A stretch of 64,000 bases of DNA from a virus (Duplodnaviria; Caudoviricetes): IMG/VR virus record IMGVR_UViG_3300037780_000034, positions 64,001-128,000 of that record; one strand, written 5' to 3'. A program made the translations under genes and the position numbers. Below are positions 29,041 to 33,928 of this stretch, in pieces. Below the pieces are notes generated by a model. The model was not told the DNA's origin, did no database searches, and saw only the letters and a program-made list of their open reading frames with translations. The number at the start of each line of letters is the position of its first letter. The stretch's first letter is position 1.

Positions 29041-29433
29041 ATGACTATTACTGAAAAACTAGATAGAATTCGCCGCCGTGTTCTTAACGGTTCTGCAATG
29101 GTAAACCAATATCGCTCCAGTTGGGGTGATAAATATTCTTTCAAAGAACTTGATATGGCTCTATCAAATAAAAAAGGATTTGGTTGGGAAGAAATTGAAT
29201 TGATTACCCAAAATGATTTGAAAACTGTTGATCGTCAAACTCTTTATAATTATGGGTTTGGAAATTGGGATGATAAACTAATTCTTATTCCTCTTTGGTT
29301 GGTAAATTTTATGGATCAAACAGAAGAAGTAGTTTCTATTATGGACAAAAAATCCACACTTGCCGATTGCGATAAAGACGTTCGTGGTGGATGTCTTGCA
29401 TATGGATTTTATTTGGAGAATGAAAATGGTTGA
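29041..29433 (+). CDS. hypothetical protein
   Basis: 130-aa ORF whose 3' end is duplicated at 29919. Confidence 0.55.
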   Translation: MTITEKLDRIRRRVLNGSAMVNQYRSSWGDKYSFKELDMALSNKKGFGWEEIELITQNDLKTVDRQTLYNYGFGNWDDKLILIPLWLVNFMDQTEEVVSIMDKKSTLADCDKDVRGGCLAYGFYLENENG

Positions 29434-29993
29434 ACCTGTAGAAATATTAAACACAACATATTGAGCGAATGATTAACCTTGGACAAGAAGTTTACGAACA
29501 CGTAAGCAATATGTACGGAGCACCATTGGGAGGACATTTAGCAGAATGACCGAGCCTTTAGAAGTACACAAAGACTTTAACGAAGCTGTTGTTGAGTTTT
29601 GGCATAGCGACGAAAACCGTCCTTTTGCTAAAATACACGCAGACGAATTAAGAGTCTATGAAGATAGAATAGAAGTTTATAGCAGGGACTATTCTTATCC
29701 TATTCTCGTAGTCCGAGAGTATGGCTGGTGGAGAGAAGCAGAATGAAAGTTAATATTAAACCACAACAAATTATTCCTGCTAGTTACAGTATTCGTTTCG
29801 ATGAAGACCGTGATTATGCTGGATACATTGTTCAAACACAACCGTATGAAGATCGGTTGAGACCCGACATTGAATCTTGGTTAAACACAAACGCTATAGG
29901 TTAGAGTGTAAATTTTGATCGTGGTGGATGTCTTGCATATGGATTTTATTTGGAGAATGAAAATGGTTGAACCTGTAGAAATAGTAAACACAA
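29382..29993. repeat. direct repeat: 65 nt exact (75 nt with 1 mismatch) at 29382-29456 and 29919-29993
   Basis: TCGTGGTGGATGTCTTGCATATGG...GAACCTGTAGAAATA occurs twice, 537 nt apart. Confidence 0.9.
29546..29746 (+). CDS. hypothetical protein inside the repeat-flanked insert
   Basis: 66-aa ORF, SD-like GGAGGA upstream. Confidence 0.5.
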   Translation: MTEPLEVHKDFNEAVVEFWHSDENRPFAKIHADELRVYEDRIEVYSRDYSYPILVVREYGWWREAE

Positions 29994-30448
29994 AGTATCT
30001 TTCCAAAGACGGTAAGATGTATGACACCTATGAAAAAGCAGAAACTGCCGACAAAGAATTTGAGCAAAAAAACAGCTTTGATCCTGCAAAGGAAGTTGCC
30101 AGATTGGAAAAAATGACCGAAATTAATTTTTCACGAATTCAGAAACAAATTGACAATGGAAAAGATGCGTTTCCTTCATTCTGGATGACTGAACAAAAGT
30201 ATGGGCAAGACTATTACATGTGTAGCAATTTTTCAGATATGGAAGAAATGGGATGGTCTGCATTTCTTATGTGGTATGACTATTATATTTGTCACGACGA
30301 TGAAACCGTTTCTGTTGTAGAAGCAATTAAATTAACAGAAAACAAAAAAGCAGCACTTGCATTTGTTCTAGATCGTGTTTCACAGGGTTACGAGTATGAA
30401 AGACTGGAAAAAATCGCAATGATAAGATTTGGTGATAAAAATGGATAA
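29963..30448 (+). CDS. hypothetical protein
   Basis: starts MVEPVEI at ATG 29963 with a GGAGA SD. Confidence 0.55.
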   Translation: MVEPVEIVNTKYLSKDGKMYDTYEKAETADKEFEQKNSFDPAKEVARLEKMTEINFSRIQKQIDNGKDAFPSFWMTEQKYGQDYYMCSNFSDMEEMGWSAFLMWYDYYICHDDETVSVVEAIKLTENKKAALAFVLDRVSQGYEYERLEKIAMIRFGDKNG

Positions 30449-30615
30449 AGATCAAATTATTGAATGGCTTTATGATAATCTTACATTAGAATCTAAAACA
30501 ATATATGATTCTTATGGTAATACAACGGGCTGTGAAATTAAGATTGAGATTTACCATAACAAAGAAAACCTAACATTAACACAAACTGAAATATATTTTA
30601 ATTAAAGAATAATAC

Positions 30616-31609
30616 ATCAACTAAAGGAGCTTTAGTATGAAAAAAATTTATCTTTGCGGACCAACCCTATACTCTGATATTCATATCGGGAACGCTAGAA
30701 GTATGGTTCTGTTTGATGTAATTTCAGAATATTATCGTAGAACAGAAGGCGTCATTTATATTAGAAATATTACTGATGTAGATGATAAAATCATATCTTT
30801 AGCAGGAGAACAACACCCCGCAGAATGGGTTAATGAAAATACATTAAAATCATTCGTTGATGCAAAAAAATTTCTTAGTCTAAAAGACCCAGATTACGAA
30901 CCTCGTGCATCAAACTTTATTGATGATATGATTTTGTATATACAAAATTTAGAAAAAAAGGGTTATACGTTTTCTCTTGAAGACGGTATATATCTTGATA
31001 TTACTAAAGTAGATTATCCTACAAAAATTTCAAATCGTCCTGTTGGATCAAAACAAGATTCATTTGCTATTTGGAAATTTACAGATGTTGGATATACTTG
31101 GGATAGTCCGTGGGGCAAAGGTCGCCCTGGCTGGCATACCGAATGTGCAGTAATGATTGATAAATTATTAGGAAAAGTAGATTTACATGGTGGAGGAAAT
31201 GATTTACTATTCCCACATCACGAAAATGAAAATATTCAATGCCGGTGCACTAATGGTCACGATATTTCTGTTAATTGGCTACACGTAGGATTTGTAAAAG
31301 TCAATAATGAAAAAATGTCTAAAAGTGCAGGAAATGTTATAACAGTAAAACAATTGGAAAAAGATTGGAGTAGTGAAGCAATTCGTGTATTTTTGTTGAT
31401 GGCTTCTTATTCTAAGCCTATTGATTTTACTATGGCAAGAATGAAGGAAGCCGAAACTATATCAATTAGAAGACCAGAAGCTGCTTGGTTGACAACAGAA
31501 GAATGGTCTGATAAAATGCTAAAAAAGTTAGAAAACAACTTCGATACCAGACTGTAGAAAAGTGACAGAACAAAATAAACACAAAATCAACTAAAGGAGT
31601 TTTAGGATG
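30616..31609. repeat. 24-nt direct repeat of the ribosome-binding region flanking the CysRS-like gene
   Basis: ATCAACTAAAGGAGCTTTAGTATG (30616) vs ATCAACTAAAGGAGTTTTAGGATG (31586), 22/24 identical. Confidence 0.8.
30637..31557 (+). CDS. cysteinyl-tRNA synthetase catalytic core lacking the anticodon-binding domain
   Basis: CGPT, HIGNAR, RNITDVDDKI, GRPGWHTEC, HGGGNDLLFPHHENE, KMSKS; ends at 306 aa just after LENNFDT. Confidence 0.85.
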   Translation: MKKIYLCGPTLYSDIHIGNARSMVLFDVISEYYRRTEGVIYIRNITDVDDKIISLAGEQHPAEWVNENTLKSFVDAKKFLSLKDPDYEPRASNFIDDMILYIQNLEKKGYTFSLEDGIYLDITKVDYPTKISNRPVGSKQDSFAIWKFTDVGYTWDSPWGKGRPGWHTECAVMIDKLLGKVDLHGGGNDLLFPHHENENIQCRCTNGHDISVNWLHVGFVKVNNEKMSKSAGNVITVKQLEKDWSSEAIRVFLLMASYSKPIDFTMARMKEAETISIRRPEAAWLTTEEWSDKMLKKLENNFDTRL

Positions 31610-32224
31610 GAAATTATTAACGAAGTAATTACATATTTCTCAGGAACTTGGGGAATGGTAGAATTAGCAGGAACTATTTTTAGTTTAATCTGCGTATATC
31701 TTGCAACAAAACATAATCAATGGACTTGGTTCTTTGGTGCATTGGGAGTCATTCTATTTGGTGCACTGTTTTATGAGTATAAACTGTATAGTGATGCAGT
31801 ATTGCAAATTTTATTCTTTTTACCCTTACAGGTTTGGGGATTTATGAAATGGCGCGATCTTGCAAATGAATCTGCAAATGATACCGTAACATTGTCACTA
31901 CAACCAAAAACAATAGCCATTATTATAGGATCAATACTTACATTAACTTTGATTAATGGATATGGTATGGCTACATACACAGATGCAAGTTTTCCATATG
32001 CAGATGCGTGGACTACTTGGTTAAGTGTATTTGCACAAATTCTAATGATCCGCAAATACTGGGAATCGTGGTCATTATGGATAATTATGGATGTCGCTGC
32101 GATTGGTATCTATTTTGCCAAAGGATTGTATGTAGTTTCAGGACTATATTTTATATTTCTTATCATTGCTACCATCGGACTATTTAAATGGTATCGTGAT
32201 TGGAAATCCCAACAAATTAATTAA
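31607..32224 (+). CDS. pnuC: nicotinamide riboside transporter PnuC
   Basis: multiple TM helices; LYSDAVLQ, FPYADAWTT, RKYWESWSLWIIMDV. Confidence 0.9.
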   Translation: MEIINEVITYFSGTWGMVELAGTIFSLICVYLATKHNQWTWFFGALGVILFGALFYEYKLYSDAVLQILFFLPLQVWGFMKWRDLANESANDTVTLSLQPKTIAIIIGSILTLTLINGYGMATYTDASFPYADAWTTWLSVFAQILMIRKYWESWSLWIIMDVAAIGIYFAKGLYVVSGLYFIFLIIATIGLFKWYRDWKSQQIN

Positions 32225-32229
32225 AACCT

Positions 32230-32253
32230 AAGAGAGGGGTATACCCCTCTCTT
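32230..32253 (+). terminator. palindromic hairpin between pnuC and the endonuclease gene
   Basis: AAGAGAGGGGTATACCCCTCTCTT, perfect 24-nt palindrome. Confidence 0.7.
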
Positions 32254-32879
32254 TGATATATAAAGAGAAAGTTGAAATGTCTAAAAAAAGAAATAACTTG
32301 ACTAAAGAAGAATGTCAAGAAAAGGCACTGCTTTGCAAAACCAGAAGTGAATTTGAAAAAACATATAATTCACATTATAAAAAAGCAAAACGGGAAAATT
32401 GGTTAGATGACATATGTCCACATATGGAAATTTTATTAAATAACTGGACCAAAGAAGAATGTCAAGAGAAGGCACTTCTCTGCGAAAGCAGAAGTGAATT
32501 TAAAAAAACATATAATTCACATTATAACAAAGCATTACGAGAAAATTGGTTAGATGACATATGTCCACATATGACTACAATCGTATTAGTAGACACTGTA
32601 TATATTTGGAATACGCTTGAAAATCCACAATTGTGGAAAATTGGAATAAGTAATCACTATACTGTAGAAAACCGAATTAATAAAGTTGGTAAAGAAGGTA
32701 ACATAACTCCACATTCCAAATATTGGAAAGTATTTGAAGATGACAATGTTTATAGTATTGAAAAAGAATTGTTAAAATTAGGAGAACCATATCAATTTAC
32801 TACTCCGTTTGATGGACATACTGAATTTCGTCTATTGACTGCCGAAGAAGAACAGTATATGAAGTCACTGATTGCATAA
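32253..32879 (+). mobile_element. free-standing GIY-YIG-like (T5orf172-type) homing endonuclease with two N-terminal 49-aa repeats
   Basis: VYIW...WKIGIS...RI and FDGHTE; 127-nt repeats at 32300-32426 and 32447-32573; sits between pnuC and nadR; likely ATG 32277. Confidence 0.6.
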
Positions 32880-32893
32880 GGGGATGCTTAACA

Positions 32894-33928
32894 ATGGTTA
32901 AAATTGGAATCACTATCGGAAAATTCATGCCGCTTCATCGTGGGCATGAACTATTGATTGATTTTGGGTCTTCAATGGTAGACCTTCTTTATGTTCTTGT
33001 ATCAGGTAAAGAAACTGATACTATTCCCCTAACTACACGGTATAACTGGGTATGGGATTATGTCAATAAAAATAATCTACAAAATGTAGAAGTAATTTAT
33101 CACGTTGATAATTCACCTACACCAATTAATGTAGATGAACACGGAACTGTTCTTGATCCAGAATTCCAAGAATATTGGAAAACAGAATTCAATCGCGTCA
33201 CCAACGCAACGCATTTTATTTCTAGTGATATGTATGGAAAAACTATGGCAGACCTTCTTGGTATCAAGTGGTTGCCAGTTGATCCAACACGTGAAATGAT
33301 CAATATCAGTGCAACACTCATTCGTAATGATCCTGTGACACATTTTGAAATGATTTCTGATGTTGCAAAACCGCATTATGTTAAAAAAATTGCTATAGTT
33401 GGTCCTGAAAGCAGTGGTAAATCCACTATGGTTAGTGATCTTGCTGATTTCTTTGGAAGTGAAATTGTCAATGAATATGGTCGCACATTGTGTGAAGTAA
33501 AAAACAATAATCTTACAAAAGAAGATTTTTTAGATATTATGCGGGGCCAACAGGCACTTATTGATAGTGTTACAAAAAAAGCAACCTCACCTTTTGTATT
33601 CATTGATACAGAAGCATATACCACTTATCTGTTTTCCAAAATTTATCTTGGAGAATATGTAGAAGAAATTCTTGATTTTGCACACAAACAAGAAATTGAT
33701 CATTATATTGTTTTATCTCCTGACATAGATTGGGTAGATGATGGAACACGTATTATGTCAAGATACAAGGATAGAGAAACATTTTATAAAGAAACAATAA
33801 AACTACTTGATTCGCAAAATAAATCTTTTGATGTAGTAAATGACGAAGATTATCGTAAGCGGTTTTGGAATGGGGTTGATGCAGTTCGTTATGTTAAATC
33901 GTTTTTGACTCATCCATTGACAACCTAA
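32894..33928 (+). CDS. nadR: NadR-like bifunctional NMN adenylyltransferase / ribosylnicotinamide kinase (no HTH)
   Basis: GKFMPLHRGH, ISATLIR, VGPESSGKST, EYGR, FIDTE, DWVDDGTR. Confidence 0.9.
   Translation: MVKIGITIGKFMPLHRGHELLIDFGSSMVDLLYVLVSGKETDTIPLTTRYNWVWDYVNKNNLQNVEVIYHVDNSPTPINVDEHGTVLDPEFQEYWKTEFNRVTNATHFISSDMYGKTMADLLGIKWLPVDPTREMINISATLIRNDPVTHFEMISDVAKPHYVKKIAIVGPESSGKSTMVSDLADFFGSEIVNEYGRTLCEVKNNNLTKEDFLDIMRGQQALIDSVTKKATSPFVFIDTEAYTTYLFSKIYLGEYVEEILDFAHKQEIDHYIVLSPDIDWVDDGTRIMSRYKDRETFYKETIKLLDSQNKSFDVVNDEDYRKRFWNGVDAVRYVKSFLTHPLTT

Follow-up and report, generated by a model that had tools for sequence, protein, structure and literature searches.

The open reading frame (ORF) at positions 30637-31557 of the window encodes a real, conserved and apparently undescribed variant of cysteinyl-tRNA synthetase (CysRS), referred to here as mini-CysRS. 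About 14 distinct lineages have conserved this short form, which argues that it does a real job. Formation of Cys-AMP is strongly indicated by its sequence, the acceptor of the cysteine can be proposed weakly, and the benefit to the phage is speculative. The window is the whole stretch of DNA analysed, 64,000 nucleotides in length, and corresponds to positions 64001-128000 of a 317,722-base virus record (31% GC, 85% complete), a giant phage from a pond metagenome. The features of the region are as follows.

30616..30639, + strand: leader module (RBS to ATG), upstream copy, 22/24 nt identical to the downstream copy
30637..31557, + strand: mini-CysRS ORF of 306 aa, ATG to TAG, with Rossmann fold, shortened CP domain, stem-contact fold and 33-aa tail
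30655..30699, + strand: C7 (Zn ligand), clade motif L11-S13-D14, HIGN and R21; C7, L11, S13, H16, G18, N19 and R21 are invariant in 14/14 clade members
31030..31074, + strand: point at which the CP1 loop is deleted (E. coli 160-173, with the 164-167 motif and R168); K175 and D180 are lost too
31132..31230, + strand: WHxEC, HGGG and FPHHENE, the cysteine/Zn pocket; W166, H167, C170, H184, H194, H195 and E198 are invariant in 14/14
31312..31326, + strand: KMSKS ATP motif (residues 226-230), by alignment
31453..31554, + strand: C-terminal tail, all that is left of the beginning of the helical bundle, with its end at the DDLNT equivalent; best matches include Allorhizobium CysRS
31489..31517, + strand: putative sigma-70-like promoter (11/12, extended -10; consensus match only), inside the 3' end of the mini-CysRS gene and facing pnuC
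31586..31609, + strand: leader module, downstream copy, serving pnuC; 22/24 nt match
31607..32224, + strand: pnuC, by profile matches; a neighbour whose functional link to mini-CysRS is only putative

Profile PF01406 covers residues 3-273 of mini-CysRS (E 7e-82), and the DALR_2 and CysS_C profiles do not match the ORF. The predicted structure has a pLDDT of 89.5 and a pTM of 0.88, and compares with CysRS structures at TM 0.84-0.87. The anatomy was read from an alignment of mini-CysRS with E. coli CysS and 212 full-length homologues, the clade residues being taken from 14 members. The Zn ligands C7, C170, H194 and E198 align with E. coli C28, C209, H234 and E238, HIGN occupies residues 16-19 and KMSKS residues 226-230, and every cysteine, Zn and ATP residue examined is retained; an earlier note on this DNA had correctly described the HIGH-like, KMSKS and Zn-ligand motifs as intact. 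The HIGN spelling is shared by 77% of the full-length homologues. Missing from mini-CysRS are the counterparts of E. coli residues 1-21, 160-173 and 355-461. The last of these ranges holds the anticodon readers R427, D436 and R439 (PMC13449415) and the second holds the CP1 motif, which recognises the first acceptor base pair 1:72 (PMC5389517); both known tRNA-reading modules are thus gone. The helical bundle is mostly gone, and the stem-contact fold is retained with a brief tail that reaches as far as the DDLNT motif (E. coli residue 354). The earlier note had placed the stop where the helical/anticodon domain should begin; the 306-aa product has no anticodon domain, but its end does not coincide exactly with the boundary, as the stem-contact fold and tail are kept. 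The note recognised the loss of tRNA-reading parts incompletely, having missed the absence of the CP1 loop; the lack of the N-terminal residues is a further refinement. Full-length enzymes have a median of 31 aa in the CP1 span, whereas every clade member has only 14-21 aa there. R42, the H224-GGG loop and the stem-contact residue R290 (E. coli numbering) are invariant in 14/14 clade members. Most or all of the clade members lack K175, D180, Y135 and R299, which 86-100% of full-length enzymes conserve, and H297 is mostly lost. A short CP1 loop is seemingly also present in a few full-length CysRS (P0190, P0162, P0176 and P0207); P0190 has a long branch in the one quick tree that puts it beside the short clade.

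The earlier note had suggested looking for the same truncation, at dN/dS below 1, in other phages, and the truncation does recur. Homology searches yielded 14 cluster representatives of 281-323 aa with 43-78% identity to the query, which quick trees unite in a single clade (SH-aLRT 99) with a long stem, separate from the full-length viral CysRS. In each of the 11 distinct loci that were read the frame is closed, by TAA, TAG or TGA at about the same place, and two further clade members, known from proteins alone, are without even the tail. The dN/dS ratio (Nei-Gojobori) is 0.081 for L041/L043, 0.164 for L004/L044 and 0.064 for L006/L042; between the window and its nearest relatives it is 0.06-0.09, with dS near saturation. 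It is well below 1 in the tail as well. Judged by these ratios, the family is under purifying selection. The surroundings are phage-like where readable, with genes for DNA polymerase B, RecA and DnaB, ribonucleotide reductase, HNH, NADAR and Macro genes, and a tRNA array.

The family is rare and patchily distributed. The cultured phages of INPHARED gave no short form among the matches listed, the CysRS of Sinorhizobium phage Phosso being full-length, and motif scans of viral contigs found none. Two sets of motif matches were rejected as clade members: those from metagenomes belong to an unrelated CysRS group sharing the motif, and two from species genomes are full-length Mollicutes CysRS. A CysRS group found by motif scan (L019-L037) has HTNE in place of the Zn-ligand motif HENE, and QKMSRS in place of KMSKS. 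The core tree resolves no sister group for the short clade. Mini-CysRS was probably derived once from an alphaproteobacterial CysRS, and the matches of the tail alone give hints of a Rhizobiales-like donor. An alphaproteobacterial host of the phage is likely but unproven, since the best cultured-phage matches of the NMNAT-Nudix protein are roseobacter and Rhodobacter phages and the tRNA-His has A73. No paper on a phage mini-CysRS family was found in the library searched; reviews give only CysRS* and MshC as paralogues of CysRS (PMC9437257), and a jumbo-phage survey does not mention CysRS (PMC7824862).

Thg1, PnuC, NadR and NMNAT-Nudix genes lie around the ORF. ARAGORN identified 24 tRNA genes in the 317.7-kb genome, and no other synthetases were found in it with profiles PF00587, PF00749 and PF00579. 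The start of pnuC follows the mini-CysRS stop by 49 nt, and both this position directly upstream of pnuC and the bracketing by near-identical 24-nt RBS-to-ATG sequences had been described accurately in the earlier note. The 14-nt core of the leader repeat has only two occurrences in the 317.7-kb genome. The pnuC leader copy is identical over 28 nt to the nadM leader in L043, and the pnuC leader of L130 resembles the nadM leader of the window. From these matches, the flanking repeats are a reusable leader module placed before other genes and not a duplication specific to mini-CysRS. Five lineages have direct repeats on both sides of the gene: the window has the leader, L005, L006/L042 and L039 have promoter modules, and L004/L044 has a duplication of roughly 80 nt. 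Five other lineages are without any. In L130, a 150-kb record in which no CysRS was found, the order Thg1 to pnuC is syntenic, with two other small ORFs in the mini-CysRS slot. The idea of an inserted cassette therefore holds for the variable slot, but not for the repeat as its private border. Repeats and variable position are observed; the shuffling of genes at shared regulatory modules is inferred from them, and mini-CysRS may move between genome slots by recombination at such short promoter/leader modules. The putative promoter in the 3' end of the gene could drive pnuC independently, so that adjacency to NAD salvage need not mean common function. The letters of this promoter are also present in L043 and absent from L006 and L041. 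NMNAT-Nudix is the only recurring neighbour of mini-CysRS (3/11 loci). Between pnuC and nadR, at 32253-32879, lies a 208-aa ORF with a 147-bp tandem duplication and no match in Pfam. It is absent in relatives, one contig joining position 32124 to 32899 and pnuC adjoining nadR in L129, and looks like an optional insert of the homing-endonuclease type. A 62-nt direct repeat (95%) at 29400-29461 and 29937-29998, 537 nt apart, represents a duplicated gene start region.

The phage genome itself encodes a U73/GCA tRNA-Cys and Thg1, and its only U73 tRNAs are tRNA-Cys(GCA) and tRNA-Gly(UCC). In L006/L042 (78% identical) the mini-CysRS gene belongs to a tRNA array, where it lies between two tRNA-Met genes; a U73/GCA tRNA-Cys whose anticodon stem has 6 bp is 1.4 kb away. 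Such a location is seen in only one of the 11 distinct loci. The tRNA-Cys of the phage genome, at G000:C1:142274-142350 (L048:6275-6351), can be read with a C2-A71 mismatch or else with two extra linker bases, a TG expansion separating the acceptor and D stems, which may be slippage. The odd phage tRNA-Cys was considered as a tailored partner, an extra 1-2 nt near the D arm being present in both mini-CysRS phages; this is unsupported, as unusual tRNA-Cys (U2:A71, long variable arms) also occur in relatives without detected mini-CysRS. Such relatives, most of them fragments but including one complete genome, likewise carry tRNA-Cys, so that a private pair of tRNA-Cys and enzyme is at most putative. 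The genes with long variable arms are at L049:10545-10628 and L055:5801-5884. Amber recoding with cysteine was rejected, since position 73 of the genome's CUA tRNA is A and all three stops are in use at the ends of ORFs; TAG read-through would lengthen the mini-CysRS ORF by only 6 residues, and its homologues stop at TAA or TGA. CUA-anticodon tRNAs (here at G000:C1:138544-138617) recur in the related phages L132, L049 and L061, and TAG is still a stop in this genome. A tRNA with an anticodon-loop insert shaped like a tRNA half is found at G000:C1:136810-136930, L006:82-205 and L042:36-160, the structure being conserved through compensatory changes; in L006/L042 it lies about 300 nt upstream of the mini-CysRS gene.

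On the features tested, mini-CysRS falls outside CysS, CysRS* and MshC. With CysS (TIGR00435; E. coli 1LI5/1U0B; PDB 8QHP, 3TQO) it shares the Rossmann fold, HIGH/KMSKS, the stem-contact fold and the Zn/cysteine pocket, in which C28, C209, H234, E238 and W205 are all present, and the nearest full-length CysRS are about 39-46% identical. It differs in lacking R427, D436 and R439, nearly all of the helical bundle, CP1 loop 160-173 and the N-terminal 21 residues, and its TIGR00435 score is 284 against a cut-off of 340. CysRS* of the Desulfobacterales (Mukai et al., PMC5389517) is likewise without the anticodon-binding domain and has an altered CP1 motif, but there the motif is substituted (MSGA to PTVS), whereas in mini-CysRS it is deleted. 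CysRS* also travels with selB* and an 8/4 tRNA-Cys(UCA) with A1:U72 (PMC5389517), and the phage genome (85% complete) gave no SelB match and no UCA tRNA; assignment to CysRS*, as described in print, was rejected on CP1 motif and partners. MshC (TIGR03447; PDB 3C8Z, 8HFM) is a CysRS paralogue of 414 aa that keeps Cys-AMP chemistry. Mini-CysRS matches it at E 8e-33, as against 4e-69 for CysRS, and scores 154.3 with TIGR03447 against a cut-off of 485.1; the mycothiol deacetylase PF02585 is absent in the phage genome and neighbours. The comparison with MshC drawn in the earlier note thus fails as membership and survives as a possible way of working. Glu-Q-RS (YadB) is a class I paralogue consisting of the catalytic domain only, without anticodon domain (PMC9437257); it belongs to another family, uses another amino acid and has the queuosine of tRNA-Asp as acceptor, so that it serves as an analogy only. 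By analogy, mini-CysRS may work like the anticodon-less CysRS* or like a catalytic-core paralogue such as Glu-Q-RS or MshC. Full-length phage CysRS (Phosso, 456 aa; IMG/VR loci L011-L014) are complete enzymes outside the short clade. In Phosso (L010:5932-9103) the neighbours of the full-length CysRS are an undetermined tRNA and a 250-aa protein that carries the annotation serine-tRNA synthetase; an RNA ligase and a peptidyl-tRNA hydrolase are close by.

The reading favoured here, held tentatively and somewhat more apt to be wrong than right, is that mini-CysRS charges U73-CCA tRNA ends without reading the anticodon. As an accessory phage enzyme it would bind cysteine at the Zn site and, as the invariant active site strongly suggests, make Cys-AMP from ATP; the cysteine may then be moved to the 3' end of U73-CCA acceptor arms, with anticodon and pair 1:72 unread. 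The likeliest substrate would be the tRNA-Cys that the phage encodes, or host tRNA-Cys whose anticodon arm is damaged or altered, and the benefit, speculatively, would be that Cys-tRNA is kept available while host tRNA or host CysRS is attacked in infection. This reading is supported by the invariance (14/14) of the cysteine, Zn and ATP residues, R42, the H224-GGG loop and R290, by dN/dS of 0.06-0.16, by the tRNA-array location in L006/L042 and by the genome's own U73/GCA tRNA-Cys and Thg1. The literature cuts both ways, hence the tentative grade. U73 alone gives cysteine identity to minihelices (PMC9976931), and an engineered CysRS minus the anticodon-binding domain charged UCA tRNA-Cys in vivo (PMC5389517); deletion of that domain alone, without a CP1 change, lowered the activity, and no activity of natural CysRS* was seen in E. 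coli (PMC5389517). Against charging, the clade is also without the CP1 motif for 1:72, K175, D180, Y135, R299 and mostly H297. Further, host CysRS could charge the phage tRNA-Cys because GCA is kept, and mischarging would be costly because tRNA-Gly also has U73. The isolated activation domain of E. coli CysRS was reportedly found by Zhang and Hou in 2005 to activate cysteine and to charge neither tRNA nor minihelix.

A non-tRNA acceptor is doubtful, though nearly as likely as U73 charging. Mini-CysRS would then be a Cys-AMP ligase for something other than a tRNA 3' end, whether a small molecule (as for MshC), a modified nucleoside (as for Glu-Q-RS) or a protein (as for EpmA), for use in host takeover or counter-defence. 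Such a phage-specific ligase might, with a chance that must be put as limited, act outside translation and pass cysteine to a new acceptor (a tRNA nucleoside, host protein or nucleotide metabolite), as a cysteine counterpart of Glu-Q-RS or EpmA; no description of this chemistry was found. The loss of both tRNA-reading modules in 14/14 members points this way, as does the CP region, which is the least conserved part of the core (majority share 0.52; P0282 lacks a further hairpin). Glu-Q-RS is similar in size and truncation point (PMC9437257). L11, S13, W64, V65, T69 and S92 are newly invariant across the clade in place of the usual residues, but may merely compensate structurally for the deleted parts. 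The recurrence of NMNAT-Nudix, the sole recurring neighbour, also speaks for this reading. Against it, across the 11 loci there is no recurring dedicated partner gene, an MshB-like deacetylase (PF02585) was not found in the genome, and one lineage lies in a tRNA array.

It is rather improbable that the useful output is side chemistry or interference: Ap4A-type nucleotides from uncoupled Cys-AMP, cysteine-persulfide, mischarging of tRNA-Gly, or a decoy that stands in for host CysRS against a defence toxin. An intact adenylation site without specificity modules and the restriction of U73 to tRNA-Cys and tRNA-Gly in the genome fit this, and synthetases can produce Ap4A (PMC9437257), but mischarging would harm phage translation too, and the second lysine of the KIIK motif is not conserved. 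That lysine is needed for persulfide synthesis, and host CysRS already has such side activities, which also counts against it. A split synthetase with the anticodon-binding half supplied in trans is very unlikely: although the genome record is only 85% complete, DALR_2, CysS_C and custom C-terminal profiles, whose controls scored E 1e-20 or better, match nothing in the 318-kb genome or within 6 kb of the 11 loci. The decaying fragment proposed in the earlier note, or an assembly error, is refuted despite the rarity and patchy distribution of the gene, by a monophyletic clade at 43-78% identity with dN/dS well below 1, tail included, by stops of all three kinds that fall at about the same place, and by a second-study contig that spans 30526-31739, the whole gene included, with zero differences. 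The stop is thus neither unique nor an error, and the other clade members are short as well.

Mini-CysRS is small, confidently folded in prediction and readily assayable, and is informative either way. If it charges tRNA, it would be a natural minimal class I synthetase with neither anticodon domain nor acceptor-stem loop. It would then put operational-code ideas directly to the test and might serve as a scaffold for inserting cysteine or selenocysteine independently of the anticodon. If it does not, phages would have evolved a new cysteine-transfer reaction.
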